From IMG/VR virus record IMGVR_UViG_2974654489_000001, positions 1 to 44,851 of that record: 44,851 bases of DNA; one strand, 5' to 3'. Shown piece after piece: positions 15,980 through 43,133 of this stretch. Position 1 is the stretch's first letter, and each line of letters begins with the position of its first letter. A model generated the notes under the pieces. That model was not told where the DNA came from. It was given only the letters and a program-made list of their open reading frames with translations, and did not search any database. Position numbers and translations under genes: made by a program. This stretch comes from a virus (lineage: Duplodnaviria > Heunggongvirae > Uroviricota > Caudoviricetes).

Positions 15980-16016
15980 TAAGTGAATAGTACCCTATTA
16001 TATTGGGGTGTGCAAG
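15980..16016 (-). promoter_or_regulatory. Leftward promoter cassette CTTGCAC-N7-TATAAT-AGGGTACTATTCAC with inverted repeat AATAG-N4-CTATT (15986-15999)
   Basis: Near-identical to cassettes at 6036-6076 and 38348-38387. Confidence 0.5.
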
Positions 16017-16123
16017 TAGTGTGCTAGAATAAGTTTGCGCCTAGTGTCGCACACGAAAAGCGGGTGGTTCCCGTCTGGCGCATTTACCGTTAACCAGTAA
16101 CCTCTTAACCAAAGGATTAAAGA

Positions 16124-27593: not shown

Positions 27594-28257
27594 AAACTGC
27601 TTTTGCGAAACCCCGCGGGGTAAGGCTGCGGATTGTTTTTGTCCTCACCGATTTACCGCCTAATTTATTGTGTTGGTCAGAGTAACCGCCAACCACGGCG
27701 ACACATGATTTAACGGGCATCACAAAACCGTTACCCGCCCAAATACATGTCTTCTTAGGGTACGCGTCCCGCGGTTTTATGTATTCAGGGAACATTGGGT
27801 GCGTGTCGTCTTCGGGTAAATAGCCGCCGTATTCGTATGGATTGAACGAGTAGTCAGGCTTACGCCATAAAGACGAAAGAACGCTAACAGGGTTCTCAAT
27901 CATATAAGGTACGTTGTACTTTTTAGCCAGACGCGCAGCCACTTTGCATGTAACCACGGCCTCTACCTGAAAAGTTGGGTTCTTCTTCCGCTTCGTTTCG
28001 AAATGAGCCGCGCCGCTAACGGCTAAATCTGTACACGGAGGGAACGCAAAAATAATATCTGGCGCAACCTCGAAGTCAAACTTATTATCAATCCACGCGT
28101 TTATATAGTGGATGTTCTCGTGTTCAACTTTTGCGCCCAATCGCGCATAGTTGCCGTGGTCTGCGCCGTCGTAGTTGAAACAATAGCAAGTATGGCCCGC
28201 TTCCGCCCACGGTTGGGCCATGAGGCCCGAACCGTCGAACAATGACCAGATAATCAT
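27574..28257 (-). CDS. C5-cytosine methyltransferase-like protein (truncated architecture)
   Basis: Motif I LFDGSGL, motif IV FPPC, motif VI-like IENPV; only 227 aa, no obvious target recognition domain. Confidence 0.45.
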   Translation of the reverse strand: MIIWSLFDGSGLMAQPWAEAGHTCYCFNYDGADHGNYARLGAKVEHENIHYINAWIDNKFDFEVAPDIIFAFPPCTDLAVSGAAHFETKRKKNPTFQVEAVVTCKVAARLAKKYNVPYMIENPVSVLSSLWRKPDYSFNPYEYGGYLPEDDTHPMFPEYIKPRDAYPKKTCIWAGNGFVMPVKSCVAVVGGYSDQHNKLGGKSVRTKTIRSLTPRGFAKAVYEANHV

Positions 28258-28445
28258 TTCGCCACCAGAACTAACTCTTTACGCCCAAACGCTGTAACGT
28301 TACCGGTTACGTCTTCAATAACCAGTTTACCGTTCGACTCGACGAACACCGTATCAACGGCAACAGGCTGGCGTGTCTTAACGTTGAAAATCATGTCGCC
28401 TGGTACGATGTCACGTGCTGGTTTGCGGTCGTATTCGTGTTTCAT
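28254..28445 (-). CDS. Hypothetical protein
   Basis: 63 aa, AAGGA RBS, overlapping stop with downstream gene. Confidence 0.5.
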   Translation of the reverse strand: MKHEYDRKPARDIVPGDMIFNVKTRQPVAVDTVFVESNGKLVIEDVTGNVTAFGRKELVLVAK

Positions 28446-28475: not shown

Positions 28476-28763
28476 CTAACTATAATAGTTCGCTATTAGG
28501 TCGTCAACCTGTTTAAACGAACCGACGACAAAAACATTTGCACCTCTTTTACGCATCCGCTCGTGCTCGCGTAACTGGTGGGGGTCGGGCTTCGTGTTTT
28601 CGTCTTTCTTAACCTCAACGAACCAGACGATGCCGCCGGGGAGAATTACCAGCAGGTCAGGAGCGCCGGAACGTCCTTCGTAGGAAAGTTTACGAACGAG
28701 GCCACCAAGGGCCTCGAATCGCTCTTTTGCGTATTTCTGTATTTTGCCCTCAGGCGTACTCAT
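28476..28763 (-). CDS. VRR-NUC domain nuclease
   Basis: GAPDLLVILPGGIVWFVEVKKDE matches the VRR-NUC / PD-(D/E)XK signature. Confidence 0.7.
   Translation of the reverse strand: MSTPEGKIQKYAKERFEALGGLVRKLSYEGRSGAPDLLVILPGGIVWFVEVKKDENTKPDPHQLREHERMRKRGANVFVVGSFKQVDDLIANYYS
28479..28507 (-). promoter_or_regulatory. Leftward sigma70-like promoter TTGACG-17 bp-TATAGT with AATAG-TTCG-CTATT in spacer (28484-28497)
   Basis: Embedded in the 3-prime end of the VRR-NUC gene; same architecture as promoters at 32077-32105 and 34776-34805. Confidence 0.45.
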
Positions 28764-31378: not shown

Positions 31379-32008
31379 TTAGCGGCGACGACGTTCGCGG
31401 CGTGGTGCAGCATCTTCTTCGTCGTCTTCCAGGTCGTCAGTGCTCGCTACTACACTGGAGCCGCCGAAGCGTTTACCTTCACCCATATACTTGATGCCGA
31501 GGATGGTAGCGCACAGGTTTTTCCAATCTTTGTGCCACCATAACTCTACAGATACGTTTGCGACACATCCGCTATATACCTGCTCGCCTTCTATTTCCTT
31601 CCCGTCGATGTTGAAATCAGGCTCGGTTTGTTTTTCGCCTTTAGCCGATGTCATAATCACAGGTTGTCGGTTGTTAGTAGCGCGGAAATACAGACCTTCT
31701 TCAAAATCTTCAATCGGATTGTCGCGCATTGCCAGGTCACGGACGCAGCATTTATCAGCATGGTGGTCTTCGCCGTAGTTCGCCTTCATCCATTTCTCAG
31801 CAGCAGCTGCCCCGATCGCCTCTGTTACAACTTCCAACGCGGTATCATAAAGCGCATCAATTTGAGGATGGTCAGGCTGCATAAGAACCGTAACCTGATA
31901 TTTGCCCTTAATCAGTTTACCGGTTTTCTTGTCCTCAGAATCAGCAGCGCGTTCGAATACGTTAACCCATGCAGTGTTTACTTTACGCAGATTCAGTTTA
32001 ATACCCAT
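31379..32008 (-). CDS. Putative ssDNA-binding protein (T7 gp2.5-like) with acidic C-terminal tail
   Basis: Ends ...GGSSVVASTDDLEDDEEDAAP; located in replication module. Confidence 0.45.
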   Translation of the reverse strand: MGIKLNLRKVNTAWVNVFERAADSEDKKTGKLIKGKYQVTVLMQPDHPQIDALYDTALEVVTEAIGAAAAEKWMKANYGEDHHADKCCVRDLAMRDNPIEDFEEGLYFRATNNRQPVIMTSAKGEKQTEPDFNIDGKEIEGEQVYSGCVANVSVELWWHKDWKNLCATILGIKYMGEGKRFGGSSVVASTDDLEDDEEDAAPRRERRRR

Positions 32009-32076: not shown

Positions 32077-32105
32077 ACTATAATAGCTAACTATTCAGGT
32101 GTCAA
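32077..32105 (-). promoter_or_regulatory. Leftward sigma70-like promoter TTGACA-17 bp-TATAGT with AATAG-CTAA-CTATT in spacer (32082-32095)
   Basis: Read directly; upstream of gene 31379-32008. Confidence 0.5.
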
Positions 32106-33554: not shown

Positions 33555-33898
33555 CCTAAACTCTCCAAATACAAGTTTAATGCCTGTAGCTGTTCTTCTG
33601 TGGGGATGAAAGAATCATCGCGGTGTAAGTCGCTTAACTGTTGCAGCATTCCTGCGAACTTACGTCTTGCGTCAACAGCGACCATGTGATGCTTTTCACT
33701 TTTGTATATTAATGTTTTCGGGTAATCATCAAGCCTGCCAGACGATTTATTCACGCGGAGCGCGCGGGCTTCATGTGCAATGTGGATGTACTTTTTGCCG
33801 TTCTGTATCACGGTAGCCGTGCCGCTGTTCTTTCTGCGGTCGCCGACGGTGTAAACTTTGTCGCCACTACGCAGATTAAGCCACCATTTATCAGTCAT
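33551..33898 (-). CDS. Hypothetical protein
   Basis: ATG 33898 after GGGAGA RBS (track starts GTG 33913); overlapping stops. Confidence 0.5.
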   Translation of the reverse strand: MTDKWWLNLRSGDKVYTVGDRRKNSGTATVIQNGKKYIHIAHEARALRVNKSSGRLDDYPKTLIYKSEKHHMVAVDARRKFAGMLQQLSDLHRDDSFIPTEEQLQALNLYLESLG

Positions 33899-34167
33899 AC
33901 CCTGTTCTCCCACTGGTCAATTAAGTGTCGTGTTTTGTGGTCGCAATGCATCGCCCACCCATACATCGACTCGAAGACATAAAAGTCAGGTTTTGCGAAA
34001 GTCGTGCGCTTAATCTGTGACACGTGACGACCTATATCTTTAGGCTTCGGTACTTTGCCTAAGTACGCCATCTCTTCCATCTGGTGTGCACCGGACGGCG
34101 CACGCAACAGCCATAGCGCCTCTGTGTTATCCCGCCTGTCCACGGCGCGGTAGAGTTGGTAAACCAT
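33895..34167 (-). CDS. Hypothetical protein
   Basis: 90 aa; GAGGG RBS. Confidence 0.5.
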   Translation of the reverse strand: MVYQLYRAVDRRDNTEALWLLRAPSGAHQMEEMAYLGKVPKPKDIGRHVSQIKRTTFAKPDFYVFESMYGWAMHCDHKTRHLIDQWENRV

Positions 34168-34210: not shown

Positions 34211-34744
34211 TTATTCTTCTTCGAAATACTTGTTCTTGATTGCCGTCAGGCGTTCCAGGTATTCAACCAGGTCTTCATCTTTAATCGCGGCAATCTTCAT
34301 CTTCTTACCGGTGAACTCCTCCAGCAGTTCATCGGAATCGTCGCACGCGGCATCGCTGGGGCCTTCGTTAATCGCATCGTCAATAGCCTGAATCTGGTCA
34401 CGCAGAGACTGGTAGTCGACTTCTTCTTCTTCTTCCGGCTCTGGCGTAGGATCCTCTACTTTAGCTTTACGCGGCTTGCGTTTCGGCTTCTCTTCTTCGG
34501 CGGGTTTAGTGTCGACGATGTCTTCACCTTCAACCGGGATTTCTTTCTCTATAGCCTTTCTCACAGCGAGTCCCGCTTGAAATTCGTCCTCCATGATGTC
34601 ATCAAGTTCTTTTGTTGCTTCTTTTGCAACAGTAGGCTCGATTGTTGCGGTTTCAGCAACGACAACTTGTTTCGCGCTGTTCGCAGCAATAAGTTCATGC
34701 GCAACTACGAAACGTTCCAGTAATACTAAGAATTTCTCTAACAT
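34211..34744 (-). CDS. Highly acidic early protein (hypothetical)
   Basis: 177 aa with long Glu/Asp-rich stretches (EPEEEEEVDY, DDSDELLEEF); first gene after a strong leftward promoter. Confidence 0.6.
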   Translation of the reverse strand: MLEKFLVLLERFVVAHELIAANSAKQVVVAETATIEPTVAKEATKELDDIMEDEFQAGLAVRKAIEKEIPVEGEDIVDTKPAEEEKPKRKPRKAKVEDPTPEPEEEEEVDYQSLRDQIQAIDDAINEGPSDAACDDSDELLEEFTGKKMKIAAIKDEDLVEYLERLTAIKNKYFEEE

Positions 34745-34775: not shown

Positions 34776-34805
34776 ACTATAATAGCGAACTATTCATGAT
34801 GTCAA
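34776..34805 (-). promoter_or_regulatory. Early leftward promoter TTGACA-18 bp-TATAGT with AATAG-CGAA-CTATT in spacer (34781-34794)
   Basis: Read directly; divergent from the regulator promoter. Confidence 0.55.
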
Positions 34806-34812
34806 TGGGCTT

Positions 34813-34845
34813 TTCTAAAATAATTAATATGGTACTATTCACATA
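34813..34845 (+). promoter_or_regulatory. Rightward promoter-like cassette with AATAT-GGTA-CTATT imperfect inverted repeat (34826-34839)
   Basis: Shares TACTATTCAC core and conserved leader with cassettes at 38348-38387 and 39821-39860; upstream of HTH regulator. Confidence 0.45.
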
Positions 34846-34869
34846 TCAACTGACTAAGGAGTAATTGAC

Positions 34870-35085
34870 ATGCAACCATCCGAACTAGGCATCCGTGTAG
34901 AACAACGCCGTAAAGAACTCGGCATCTCCCAGCGCCGTCTGGCTGTTCTGGCTGGCGTTTCCCAGGGTGCAATTAACCAGCTGGCACTTGGAGTAACTCA
35001 GGACGTCCGCCCGGCAACGCTGTTTAAACTAGCTGAAGTGCTGCAAGTAGACGCCAAGTGGCTGGCGTTCGGTGAAGGGGCTTAA
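34870..35085 (+). CDS. XRE-family (Cro/CI-type) HTH transcriptional regulator
   Basis: LGISQRRLAVLAGVSQGAINQLALG helix-turn-helix; RBS AAGGAG. Confidence 0.8.
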   Translation: MQPSELGIRVEQRRKELGISQRRLAVLAGVSQGAINQLALGVTQDVRPATLFKLAEVLQVDAKWLAFGEGA

Positions 35086-35100
35086 CGCCCCTTTCTTTTT
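35075..35100. terminator. Bidirectional intrinsic terminator (AAGGGGC-TTAAC-GCCCCTT + T tract)
   Basis: Hairpin spans the regulator stop codon; T run follows; primase gene ends just beyond. Confidence 0.6.
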
Positions 35101-37557: not shown

Positions 37558-37770
37558 TTATTTACAGCCGGAAAACCACGCGTGCACGGAATCATAGAAA
37601 CGACATTTACTTAACACCTCGATTGGCATCTTAATAATGCGCGTCGGTTCCGACAAATGATTAGGCTTACATATTTCTGCATAGAATCCGCTGTCAGTAA
37701 TTTCCGATGCAAACTTAAACCAGTATTTAACTTTACCGTTTTCAAAGTAACAACCCATACGCCCAATCAT
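37558..37770 (-). CDS. Hypothetical protein
   Basis: 70 aa; AGGAGA RBS. Confidence 0.5.
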   Translation of the reverse strand: MIGRMGCYFENGKVKYWFKFASEITDSGFYAEICKPNHLSEPTRIIKMPIEVLSKCRFYDSVHAWFSGCK

Positions 37771-37949
37771 TTCACGTTCTCCTTAATCCACGCTTCAACT
37801 TTATTACGGTCAAATGTTCCCGGTAAACGTCGACCCATAACCTTAATACAACAATCCGGGAATTTACCACTGCGTAACCAGTTATTAATTGTCTGACGTG
37901 TCACCCCGATACGTTCAGCTACTTCATTCTGTGTCATGTAATGCGGCAT
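37767..37949 (-). CDS. HTH DNA-binding protein (AlpA/excisionase-like fold)
   Basis: 60 aa from ATG 37949 with AGGAGA RBS (track ORF extends to 38018); MTQNEVAERIGVTRQTINNWLRSGKFP. Confidence 0.55.
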   Translation of the reverse strand: MPHYMTQNEVAERIGVTRQTINNWLRSGKFPDCCIKVMGRRLPGTFDRNKVEAWIKENVK

Positions 37950-38055: not shown

Positions 38056-38084
38056 GTTGACTTTTACTAAGAAATATGGTAAGC
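38056..38084 (+). promoter_or_regulatory. Sigma70-like promoter (TTGACT-17 bp-TAAGCT), paralog of the promoter at 6136-6164
   Basis: Identical hexamers and spacing. Confidence 0.5.
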
Positions 38085-38305
38085 TCAGCCTGAGCTTGTG
38101 AAGTATGAACAAGCGACCGCGGCGCGCGGCAGGCGAAACGAGCACGTGTAGCGTGTGGAGTGAGGCTCGCTAGCGCGTTTGGGAGGCCCAAAGTCTATTG
38201 TAATTCCCGCCTAAATATCTAAGTTACTGATTTGCCGTAGGATAGAACCGCAAGCTCACTCACTCACTCTTGGTGCCTTCGGCACCACGTTCGTTTCGTT
38301 TCGCT
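38085..38305 (+). ncRNA. Candidate leader RNA or small RNA (copy 2 of paralogous element)
   Basis: First 70 nt near-identical to 6165-6235; contains CACT x3 and CGTTT x2 repeats and GGTGCC-TTCG-GCACC hairpin followed by U-rich run. Confidence 0.4.
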
Positions 38306-38347: not shown

Positions 38348-38387
38348 TAATCTCTTGCACACCCCGACATAATAGGATACTATTCAC
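38348..38387 (+). promoter_or_regulatory. Promoter cassette CTTGCAC-N7-CATAAT-AGGATACTATTCAC with AATAG-GATA-CTATT (38371-38384)
   Basis: Near-identical to the cassette at 15980-16016 in opposite orientation. Confidence 0.5.
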
Positions 38388-38905: not shown

Positions 38906-39097
38906 ATGAGGATTCGAATAATCGACGTTGATTATGTTCTTCCGCCGGGTTATGGCGACCATTCACTGCGCTACTTTGGTGTCTCCGTCGGAGATGAGTT
39001 CGAGGCTATAACTTATAACGATTACGGGTGTGCCGTTGAGCATTGCGGGGAAGAACTGTACGTGCGTCGACGTGAATATGTGATTCTGGAGGACTGA
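38906..39097 (+). CDS. Hypothetical protein
   Basis: ATG 38906 after GGGGG RBS (track starts 38894). Confidence 0.45.
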   Translation: MRIRIIDVDYVLPPGYGDHSLRYFGVSVGDEFEAITYNDYGCAVEHCGEELYVRRREYVILED

Positions 39098-39247: not shown

Positions 39248-39445
39248 ATGGGCCAGTGGATTAAGTGTAGTGAGCGGATGCCAGGTGATTTTGAAGATGT
39301 GCTGGTTTCAGATGGGGTTAACGTTGAGGTGATGTGGCGGGACTGCGACGGTTTCTGGGATTCTTGGGCGCCACGTAACTCAAACATCGATACCGACGAT
39401 GTAACCCATTGGGCGCCGTTACCCGAGCCGCCATCGCTGGTGTAA
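39248..39445 (+). CDS. Hypothetical protein
   Basis: 65 aa, RBS AAGGGG. Confidence 0.5.
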   Translation: MGQWIKCSERMPGDFEDVLVSDGVNVEVMWRDCDGFWDSWAPRNSNIDTDDVTHWAPLPEPPSLV

Positions 39446-39477
39446 CAGGTGGTGTAACAGGTCAATAGGTTACTATT
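39437..39477 (+). repeat. Tandem direct repeat (GGTGTAACAG x2) followed by inverted repeat AATAG-GTTA-CTATT
   Basis: Read directly; overlaps the stop codon of the upstream gene. Confidence 0.5.
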
Positions 39478-39490
39478 TGGCTTTGTGACT

Positions 39491-39529
39491 TACGCTGCTA
39501 CACAGCAGCGTATCATTTTTCTCATTTTT
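39491..39529 (+). terminator. Intrinsic terminator (TACGCTGCT-ACAC-AGCAGCGTA + T tracts)
   Basis: Perfect 9-bp stem followed by TCATTTTTCTCATTTTT. Confidence 0.7.
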
Positions 39530-39820: not shown

Positions 39821-39860
39821 TTGCACACTGGTATAGAATAGGCTACTATTCATTTACACA
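39821..39860 (+). promoter_or_regulatory. Promoter cassette CTTGCAC-N7-TAGAAT-AGGCTACTATTCAT with AATAG-GCTA-CTATT (39837-39850)
   Basis: Same architecture and conserved leader CAAACGAGAGGAGAGA as other cassettes. Confidence 0.5.
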
Positions 39861-42972: not shown

Positions 42973-42993
42973 TCTATTTTCTGCCATGACTAG

Positions 42994-43025
42994 TTGACTA
43001 TTACCTACGACCCTATTATATTTAC
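42994..43025 (+). promoter_or_regulatory. Sigma70-like promoter (TTGACT-17 bp-TATATT) containing the CCCTATTATATT motif
   Basis: Read directly downstream of the terminator; coordinates approximate. Confidence 0.4.
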
Positions 43026-43055: not shown

Positions 43056-43133
43056 ATGAGTAACTTCCATAACGAACATGTGATGCAGTTCTACCGCAAT
43101 AATCTGAAAACTAAAGGGGTGTTTGGAAAATGA
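43056..43133 (+). CDS. Micro-ORF (25 aa)
   Basis: RBS GGAGTAGAGAAG; ATGA-coupled to next ORF. Confidence 0.3.

Follow-up and report, generated by a model that had tools for sequence, protein, structure and literature searches.

Phage 434 has 14-bp dyad operators, ACAA-N6-TTGT, whose center is specified only weakly. At the start of the recognition helix stands a glutamine that contacts base 1 (A); a second glutamine reads bases 2–3. Other phages place one regulator at many dispersed sites, as do P1 C1 (more than 10 operators) and mycobacteriophage L5 gp71 with its "stoperators," proteins of other families that act at asymmetric sites and maintain lysogeny. Here, we analyze a 44,851-nt stretch of tailed-phage DNA (IMG/VR record IMGVR_UViG_2974654489_000001; "the window" denotes this whole stretch), in which a 14-bp inverted repeat, AATAG-N4-CTATT, recurs at promoters and a 71-aa XRE-family helix-turn-helix (HTH) protein related to 434 Cro is the best candidate for its binder. 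We report the motif, its enrichment, its promoter geometry, the fold of the protein, and the conservation and co-variation of the pair across relatives.

Both components have been described separately. A PHIRE consensus, tgAATAGTa-ccTATTat-T, was found at seven places in the sister Kagunavirus phage fBC-Eco01 and ascribed to a phage-encoded RNA polymerase (PMC9825357), and the paper on Escherichia phage VB_EcoS-Golestan (hereafter Golestan) likewise lists seven PHIRE promoters. The fBC-Eco01 consensus is the same sequence motif as AATAG-N4-CTATT; PMC9825357 does not note its dyad symmetry, its overlap with sigma-70 hexamers, or a link to the XRE gene. Orthologues of that gene are routinely annotated "Cro," "transcriptional repressor," or "DicA." Our literature search found no paper that joins the motif to the XRE protein, notes its symmetry or sigma-70 overlap, or tests binding.

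The window is the complete ~45-kb genome of a virulent Escherichia coli siphophage of the genus Kagunavirus (Guernseyvirinae), ~92% identical to Golestan and other Kagunavirus genomes; our gene map holds 76 genes, with 9.1% intergenic DNA. An earlier sequence-only reading had described a phage with no integrase, and the annotation of its close relative Golestan lists neither an integrase nor a CI-type repressor. According to its published description, Golestan has no lysogeny genes; the group has been called virulent. No S24 peptidase domain was detected among the window proteins scanned against Pfam, and an Rfam scan of the whole window returned no family at threshold.

The dyad AATAGNNNNCTATT occurs in eight exact copies (starts at 6041, 15986, 28484, 32082, 34781, 38371, 39464, and 39837) against 0.08 expected, a count that none of 100 dinucleotide-preserving shuffles reached. 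Allowing up to one mismatch gives 12 copies against 1.02 expected, the additional four lying at 34826 (AATATGGTACTATT), 6132, 42989, and 3399. Every dyad coordinate in the sequence-only reading proved correct on re-search, and the one-mismatch pattern search and shuffle comparison that it had proposed show this strong enrichment. An unbiased scan of all 5-mer inverted repeats with spacers of 0–10 bp, with no motif assumed, ranked AATAG-N4-CTATT first in the window (Poisson p ~2e-16). Seven of the eight exact sites are fully intergenic, and the eighth overlaps just the last codons of the upstream VRR-NUC gene; for six, the end of the dyad lies 24–38 nt ahead of a start codon. Some ten dyads are promoter-associated, spread from 6041 to 43002.

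These sites fall into three promoter classes that differ in the register of the dyad relative to sigma-70-type −35/−10 elements. In class A, three strong leftward promoters (TTGACA/G, 17–18 bp, TATAGT) have the dyad in their spacer, as had been proposed from the sequence alone. These promoters head replication and recombination operons:

34776 to 34805, minus strand: P_left, TTGACA, 18 bp, TATAGT, with 11/12 consensus matches
34781 to 34794: candidate operator O_L, AATAGCGAACTATT, perfect, in the spacer of P_left
32077 to 32105, minus strand: TTGACA-17-TATAGT, with operator 32082–32095 in its spacer
28479 to 28507, minus strand: TTGACG-17-TATAGT, with operator 28484–28497 in its spacer

In the gene map, P_left precedes 34211–34744 (phrog_3127), 33895–34167, a ProQ-C-like gene, and an exonuclease; the promoter at 32077–32105 precedes a DUF2815/gp2.5-like single-stranded DNA-binding (ssDNA-binding) protein and DNA polymerase; and that at 28479–28507 precedes a 63-aa gene, a methyltransferase, a helicase, and a Toprim protein. 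Promoters homologous to 32077–32105 retain the dyad in Jerseyvirus FSL SP-101, Serratia phage Tsm2, and phiEap-2. The DUF2815/gp2.5-like gene itself (31379–32008, minus strand) is ~98% identical to its counterparts in a few Kagunavirus records and ~64% identical to those in most, including Golestan, a split indicating that this gene, which directly follows a dyad-bearing promoter, has undergone mosaic exchange.

Class B comprises four cassettes of the form TTGCAY-N17-TACTAT that drive small accessory genes:

6042 to 6070, minus strand: TTGCAT-N17-TACTAT, operator 6041–6054; drives an 81-aa gene, 5770–6015
15987 to 16015, minus strand: TTGCAC-N17-TACTAT, operator 15986–15999
38355 to 38384, plus strand: TTGCAC-N17-TACTAT, operator 38371–38384; drives small genes from 38409
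39821 to 39850, plus strand: TTGCAC-N17-TACTAT, operator 39837–39850; drives genes from 39881 toward the lysis cassette

Behind the cassette at 15987–16015 lie a superinfection-immunity gene, an SbcD-like exonuclease, and a PNK operon. The sequence-only reading had parsed such cassettes as TTGCAC-N7-TATAAT, with the dyad just downstream of the TATAAT. That parse fits only two of the four and has a 7-bp spacer unworkable for sigma-70; we replaced it with TTGCAY-N17-TACTAT, which fits all four (0 expected by chance), so that the dyad covers spacer and −10 and its right arm is part of the −10 hexamer. The 17-bp geometry recurs in Jerseyvirus, in Tsm2, and, with its own hexamers, in Cornellvirus.

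The promoter of the XRE gene and the two class C promoters carry imperfect copies:

34826 to 34839: candidate operator O_xre, AATATGGTACTATT, one mismatch, on the regulator's own promoter
42989 to 43002: class C weak site ACTAG-TTGA-CTATT, overlapping the −35 of a rightward TTGACT-17-TATATT at 42994–43022
6132 to 6145: class C weak or half site AATAG-TTGA-CTTTT, overlapping the −35 of a rightward TTGACT-N17-TAAGCT at 6136–6164

An imperfect copy on the regulator's own promoter had been proposed and is present at 34826. This promoter has no good −35; it does have an extended −10, TGgTACTAT, at 34830–34838, whose TG arises from the single G-to-T mismatch (AATAT for AATAG). The centers of O_L and O_xre lie 45 bp apart, with one operator per promoter. 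In both one-mismatch class C sites (6132 and 42989), the −35 hexamer TTGACT lies at the center of the dyad. A one-mismatch site in Jerseyvirus, AATAG-TTGA-CTAGT, has the same context as 42989, after a T-rich terminator. The right arm at 6132 is promoter sequence common to a site-less paralogue at 38058.

The sequence-only reading had the dyads overlapping promoter elements, which holds for most copies and fails at one:

39464 to 39477: orphan perfect site, AATAGGTTACTATT, with no recognizable −35, between a DUF551 gene and a terminator at 39491–39512

Golestan has an exact dyad at 38971–38984 that occupies the same place in the order of its eight sites, a homology judged by order and not by alignment. 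Immediately upstream of the orphan dyad, across the DUF551 stop codon, a direct repeat, GGTGTAACAGGT, occurs twice at 39438–39463. The one-mismatch copy TATAGTATGCTATT at 3399–3412 lies just past the portal-gene terminator with no evident −35 and is probably nonfunctional, since about one such match is expected by chance. The reversed palindrome ACTATTCGAATAGT reported at 6122–6135 is present; it sits inside a cluster of a different repeat, GGAATA/TATTCC, and may fall outside the AATAG motif. A possible shared leader motif, AACGAGA, was not enriched in the window (10 against 6 expected).

Natural variation separates the dyad from its surroundings. The region upstream of the XRE gene was compared in 23 distinct natural Kagunavirus variants. 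In all of them the ten half-site bases of O_L are the same, whereas its central 4 bp take five forms and the segment between O_L and the −35 differs in sequence as well as in length. O_xre likewise keeps one sequence, mismatch included, in 23/23.

The promoter geometry bears directly on whether the repeat is simply part of a phage-specific promoter consensus, or cassette sequence spread by recombination, with no dedicated repressor. Such an account draws on the labeling of the consensus as seven "phage promoters" in fBC-Eco01, on the coincidence of the class B right arm with the −10 TACTAT, and on the similarity of the class B cassettes over ~45 bp beyond the repeat. No RNA polymerase gene is annotated in Golestan, and no phage RNA polymerase or sigma factor was found in the gene map, in Pfam/PHROG scans, or in relatives' annotation. 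Promoters of a phage RNA polymerase would hold a fixed register to the transcription start and lack host hexamers; the dyad occurs in three registers relative to canonical −35/−10 elements with 17–18-bp spacing. These registers, which differ across classes A, B, and C, mark the dyad as an element independent of the promoter consensus, and the site at 39464 lacks any promoter. Although no promoter role falls to the left arm, it shows as little variation as the right arm in the 23 variants; moreover, both arms change jointly and symmetrically between lineages (below), the signature of a dimeric binder and not of an asymmetric promoter element. We therefore regard a pure promoter or cassette origin as quite improbable.

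The candidate binder is encoded divergently from P_left:

34870 to 35085, plus strand: 71-aa XRE/HTH_3 protein, 434-Cro-like (HTH_3 and 434 Cro matches), candidate operator-binding repressor
35074 to 35094, plus strand: terminator-like hairpin, directly 3′ of the XRE gene

An AAGGAG ribosome-binding site and the HTH_3 match indicate that this open reading frame, as had been called, is real. The protein scores 48.1 bits against Pfam HTH_3 (gathering cut-off 23; E 1.2e-12) and is assigned to PHROG transcriptional-repressor families. Among proteins of solved structure, the closest by sequence is phage 434 Cro, also 71 aa (E 4.9e-7 over residues 6–68), followed by 434 repressor and P22 C2. A single-sequence AF2 model (pLDDT 84) has helices at 5–17, 21–28, 32–39, 48–57, and 62–66, and its top Foldseek matches are 434 Cro (2cro) and the Cro/OR1 complex (3cro), at TM 0.72–0.79 and 38–41% identity. 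In the recognition helix, SQGAINQ aligns opposite KQQSIQL of 434 Cro and TQQSIEQ of 434 repressor. The first glutamine is conserved; the second is glycine in the XRE protein, and operator bases 2–3 differ too (AT versus CA). Judged by this analogy, the helix and the AATAG dyad appear consistent with 434-type recognition, short of proof.

The lambdoid phage klb_E carries a QQ-type helix and ACAA-N6-TTGT sites beside its cro gene, so that the helix-to-operator reading behaves as expected in the family. A reading of klb_E as a "specificity swap" was rejected, since its sites are confined to the neighborhood of cro and hardly any window proteins have a match in it; it serves only as an analogy. 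A residue-to-base code for the recognition helix was also discarded as inconsistent across Kagunavirus, Jerseyvirus, and Cornellvirus.

Comparison with relatives shows that dyad and XRE gene are conserved together and vary together. The same dyad occurs at homologous promoters in Golestan (8 exact), SP-101 (5 exact), and Tsm2 (2 exact and 2 near), and AATAG-N4-CTATT is the top or near-top inverted repeat in all three. XRE identity falls as low as 42–51% among relatives that retain AATAG-N4-CTATT. Other lineages combine a diverged XRE protein at the same syntenic position with a different, still symmetric dyad:

IMG/VR locus L046: AATAC-N4-GTATT, 3 sites against 0.16 expected
Cornellvirus SP-031 and STP-1: TATTA(G/C)-N4-(C/G)TAATA, 9 against 1.2 expected
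IMG/VR loci L051 and L059: TTAG-N4-CTAA
phiEap-2: AATAn-N4-nTATT, eight sites, 7/8 at promoter-like positions

In L046, a perfect dyad lies in P_left, an imperfect one on its own XRE promoter, and the third 3 kb away. The promoter divergent from the XRE gene contains a 14-bp dyad-like element at the same spacer position in all lineages except Tsm2. Both arms change together between lineages, which is the pattern predicted by selection from a dimeric binder. The Dhillonvirus phages JL1 and SO-1 have no XRE gene at the syntenic spot, and their top repeats are G/C-rich (GGGG...CCCC); they were set aside as uninformative.

The Edwardsiella phage eiAU-183 (L007) has two different dyads; it is hence ambiguous, and we did not retain it as a clean case of co-variation. 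Genome-wide, it carries a 16-bp dyad, GTTAA-N6-TTAAC, with 9 matches against 0.8 expected; positions include 13209, 14854, 27758, 28101, 31163, 31989, and 42907. Five exact sites directly follow cTATA, reading TATAGT as a possible −10, shortly before a ribosome-binding site, and at two of the five a TTGCAC/TTGCAA lies 17 bp upstream of that possible −10. Because its XRE-adjacent and genome-wide dyads differ, eiAU-183 may have two regulators.

On balance, we consider it probable, with appreciable room for the alternatives, that the XRE protein binds these dyads as a dimer, occludes the promoters, and acts as a Cro-like, genome-wide negative regulator. From the comparisons above, we infer the identity of the binder, repression upon binding, and an effect on timing. 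In this model, the 71-aa 434-Cro-type protein would dimerize on the 14-bp AATAG-N4-CTATT; the operators would overlap the class A spacers, the class B spacer and −10, the extended −10 of its own promoter, and, more weakly, the class C −35. Since the dyad overlaps the promoter core, a bound dimer would exclude RNA polymerase. The targets turned down would be the replication/recombination operons and the accessory-gene operons, and the imperfect O_xre would provide weaker negative autoregulation. The scheme can be likened to Cro lowering early transcription, here in a phage without CI or integrase.

Several observations weigh against this model. Kagunavirus and Jerseyvirus share one motif but have different recognition helices (SQGAINQ and SQSLITH), and Jerseyvirus and Cornellvirus (TQSAISH) have similar helices but different motifs. 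The Tsm2 copy in P_left is degenerate, and in eiAU-183 the P_left dyad, GTAAA-N4-TTTAC, differs from the genome-wide GTTAA-N6-TTAAC. The co-variation of the dyad cannot single out the XRE gene among the genes of a genome. Four proteins without known function (34211–34744, 33895–34167, 43130–43270, and 28254–28445) are conserved in all lineages, so that rival binders keep some probability. Two features of the only Kagunavirus transcriptome, taken up below with its sampling, belong in the same list: There the XRE orthologue is classed "middle," and genes whose window counterparts lie behind dyads peak last.

The sequence-only reading had named the XRE protein as the only obvious candidate binder. 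It remains the best candidate, given its 434-Cro homology, its presence throughout, and the lineage-specific dyads; it is not the sole one, because scans of small and unassigned window proteins against Pfam and PHROG returned two further DNA-binding folds:

37767 to 37949, minus strand: HTH_17 (excisionase/MerR-like) protein, 60 aa (Pfam E 4.5e-8)
44462 to 44701: NinH-like protein (same scans)

The dyad might be bound by a different phage protein (either of these two or a conserved protein without known function), with the XRE protein regulating only its own divergent region or something else. HTH_17 is a genuine DNA-binding fold whose orthologue is among only four "early" genes in phage K1B4. 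By tblastn it is missing from Tsm2, STP-1, SP-031, and eiAU-183; of these, Tsm2 keeps AATAG-N4-CTATT, and Cornellvirus and eiAU-183 carry their own dyads. NinH was not found in Tsm2 or eiAU-183, and Pfam scans detected no DNA-binding domain in the conserved proteins without known function. By tblastn, the XRE gene is present in all Guernseyvirinae sampled, with a syntenic homologue in eiAU-183, and its product is the only recognizable sequence-specific DNA-binding protein found in all dyad-bearing lineages compared. The 14-bp dyad also matches its 434-type footprint. Another phage-encoded binder is unlikely on this evidence, without being negligible.

A host transcription factor would couple the phage promoters to host physiology, and the occurrence of the same motif in phages of E. 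coli, Salmonella, and Serratia makes a conserved enterobacterial factor conceivable. Jerseyvirus and Cornellvirus both infect Salmonella enterica and carry different dyads, which argues against a host factor: The motif tracks phage lineage, not host. We know of no enterobacterial regulator with this consensus, which further counts against the idea, and we judge it very improbable.

Expression timing was considered using the only Kagunavirus transcriptome, RNA sequencing (RNA-seq) of K1B4 (PMC12645636), in which an HTH gene is among four "early" genes. This gene offers no support for early XRE expression: It proved to be the HTH_17 orthologue (gene 008, K1B4_008, 183 nt, minus strand; PMC12645636 supplement), and the "middle" XRE orthologue is gene 004 (PMC12645636). 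The genes that peak last are DNA polymerase, methylases, and Imm (PMC12645636), whose window counterparts sit behind dyad-bearing promoters. Sampling ran to 120 min against a latent period of 30 min (PMC12645636), and the time course is unsynchronized after 30 min; because sampling far exceeds the latent period, these data neither support nor refute the XRE model. The timing does not fit a simple scheme of early promoters shut off by Cro and warns against assuming one. In the window, HTH_17 is the first gene of the helicase–primase operon; the promoter read ahead of it, TTGCTT-N17-TATACT (~38000–37972, leftward), has no dyad, which fits the operon being early. In Tsm2, Cornellvirus, and eiAU-183, where HTH_17 is absent, the helicase–primase gene is inverted and follows the XRE gene.

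The late peaks in K1B4 also bear on a variant in which the XRE protein binds the dyads and acts as a dual regulator, with leftward transcription repressed and rightward late transcription activated, or in which it is a copy-number sensor whose repression is titrated by replicating genomes; in favor of this variant, K1B4 genes whose window counterparts lie behind dyad promoters peak last, not first. A candidate rightward extended −10 promoter, TGcTAGAAT (16022–16030), lies ahead of the tail genes; it was read from the sequence and was not listed by the consensus scan. Operator 15986–15999 is centered ~44–45 bp upstream of its likely start, an activator-type position resembling that of lambda CI at PRM. 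All the good sites overlap core promoter elements, which is repressor geometry; the −44.5 arrangement occurs at one site only, and the loss of synchrony in K1B4 after 30 min applies here as well. Dual regulation or titration in place of plain repression is accordingly given little probability.

A broader synthesis would make the CI-less Cro-like protein the master timer of a strictly virulent siphophage, with ordered shut-off, titration, and late activation; we put it forward as a speculative reading that is unlikely to hold in full. Operator grades (perfect, one mismatch, half site) and the three geometries would order the shut-off of replication and accessory operons, replicating genomes with ~10 operators each would titrate the repressor, and the same protein would activate late transcription from the site near −44.5 of the tail-operon promoter. 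Were this true, the operator series AATAG, AATAC, ATTAG, and TTAG, with their own XRE orthologues, would constitute a ready-made 434-type specificity code.

Near the class C site at 6132, several other elements stand out. At 6136–6365 and 38058–38287 there are two copies (~78% identical) of a rightward promoter (TTGACTTTT...TAAGCT) together with the initial ~145 nt of its untranslated leader. The 5′ part of the two leaders is identical (CCTGAGCTTGTGAAGTATGAACAAGCGACCGCGGCGCG), hairpins further on show compensatory changes between copies, and each leader ends in a terminator-like hairpin (6346–6365 and 38271–38287) ahead of the first gene. No Rfam family matched either leader; the layout resembles antitermination-controlled late operons (lambda PR′/6S RNA and HK022 put). 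The copy at 6136 is conserved in Jerseyvirus, and the record of Dhillonvirus SO-1 annotates two similar "region A/B" repeats. GGAATA/TATTCC hexamers form clusters of three at 6085–6122, just upstream of the 6136 promoter, and at 6869–6905, ahead of the scaffold gene. SP-101 has such clusters too, and phiEap-2 has four GAATAA(A/T)TTATTC palindromes in the equivalent place; these hexamers are a second motif family, possibly of late-activator sites.

Guernseyvirinae (Kagunavirus, Jerseyvirus) rank among the most frequent isolates when phages are sought for therapy and biocontrol of E. coli and Salmonella, and the proposed circuit, in which one 71-aa protein would act through one 14-bp site at about ten promoters, is concrete and cheaply testable. 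The analysis also corrects the literature, where the motif, in phages without a polymerase of their own, has been labeled "phage RNA-polymerase promoters." A map of probably regulated and unregulated promoters would be useful in engineering these phages, and the naturally diverged XRE/operator pairs would allow the recognition rules of the 434 Cro family to be tested. Because the mechanism itself is textbook, the conceptual gain is modest.

Among known systems, the XRE protein most resembles 434 Cro, its best match in both sequence and structure (2cro and 3cro), in its length of 71 aa and five-helix HTH_3 fold. It shares with 434 Cro and the 434 repressor DNA-binding domain (1per) the recognition-helix glutamine and a 14-bp dyad that begins with A and has a poorly conserved center. 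It differs in its half-site, AATAG rather than ACAA(G/T), in the glycine that replaces the second recognition-helix glutamine, and in having neither a CI partner nor an integrase; its operators stand one per promoter instead of in tripartite OR/OL arrays and are dispersed over about ten promoters of a virulent genome. Between the divergent promoters, tandem tripartite operators (OR1–3, OL1–3) are not present. As with lambda Cro, a small regulator, early or middle in its timing, sits at a divergent promoter region with operators on the divergent promoter and, more weakly, on its own. Unlike lambda Cro, it serves no lysis–lysogeny switch, and its putative regulon extends far beyond the local region. 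Nor does a CI-type repressor lie opposite: The divergent gene, 34211–34744, has no Pfam match and belongs to phrog_3127, a family of no known function.

The likeness to P1 C1 and L5 gp71, with one regulator and many short sites scattered at or near promoters, is one of logic only, since there is no prophage state to maintain here and the sites are symmetric. The restriction–modification controller proteins C.AhdI and C.BclI, and SinR, which are among the structural neighbors, are small XRE dimers with dyads over promoter cores and autoregulation through sites of graded affinity; their circuits are local, with one or two promoters, and 434 Cro is closer in sequence to the XRE protein than they are. 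The XRE protein of the window is no part of a lambdoid CI/Cro immunity switch and is, by every feature tested, a member of the 434 Cro/XRE family.

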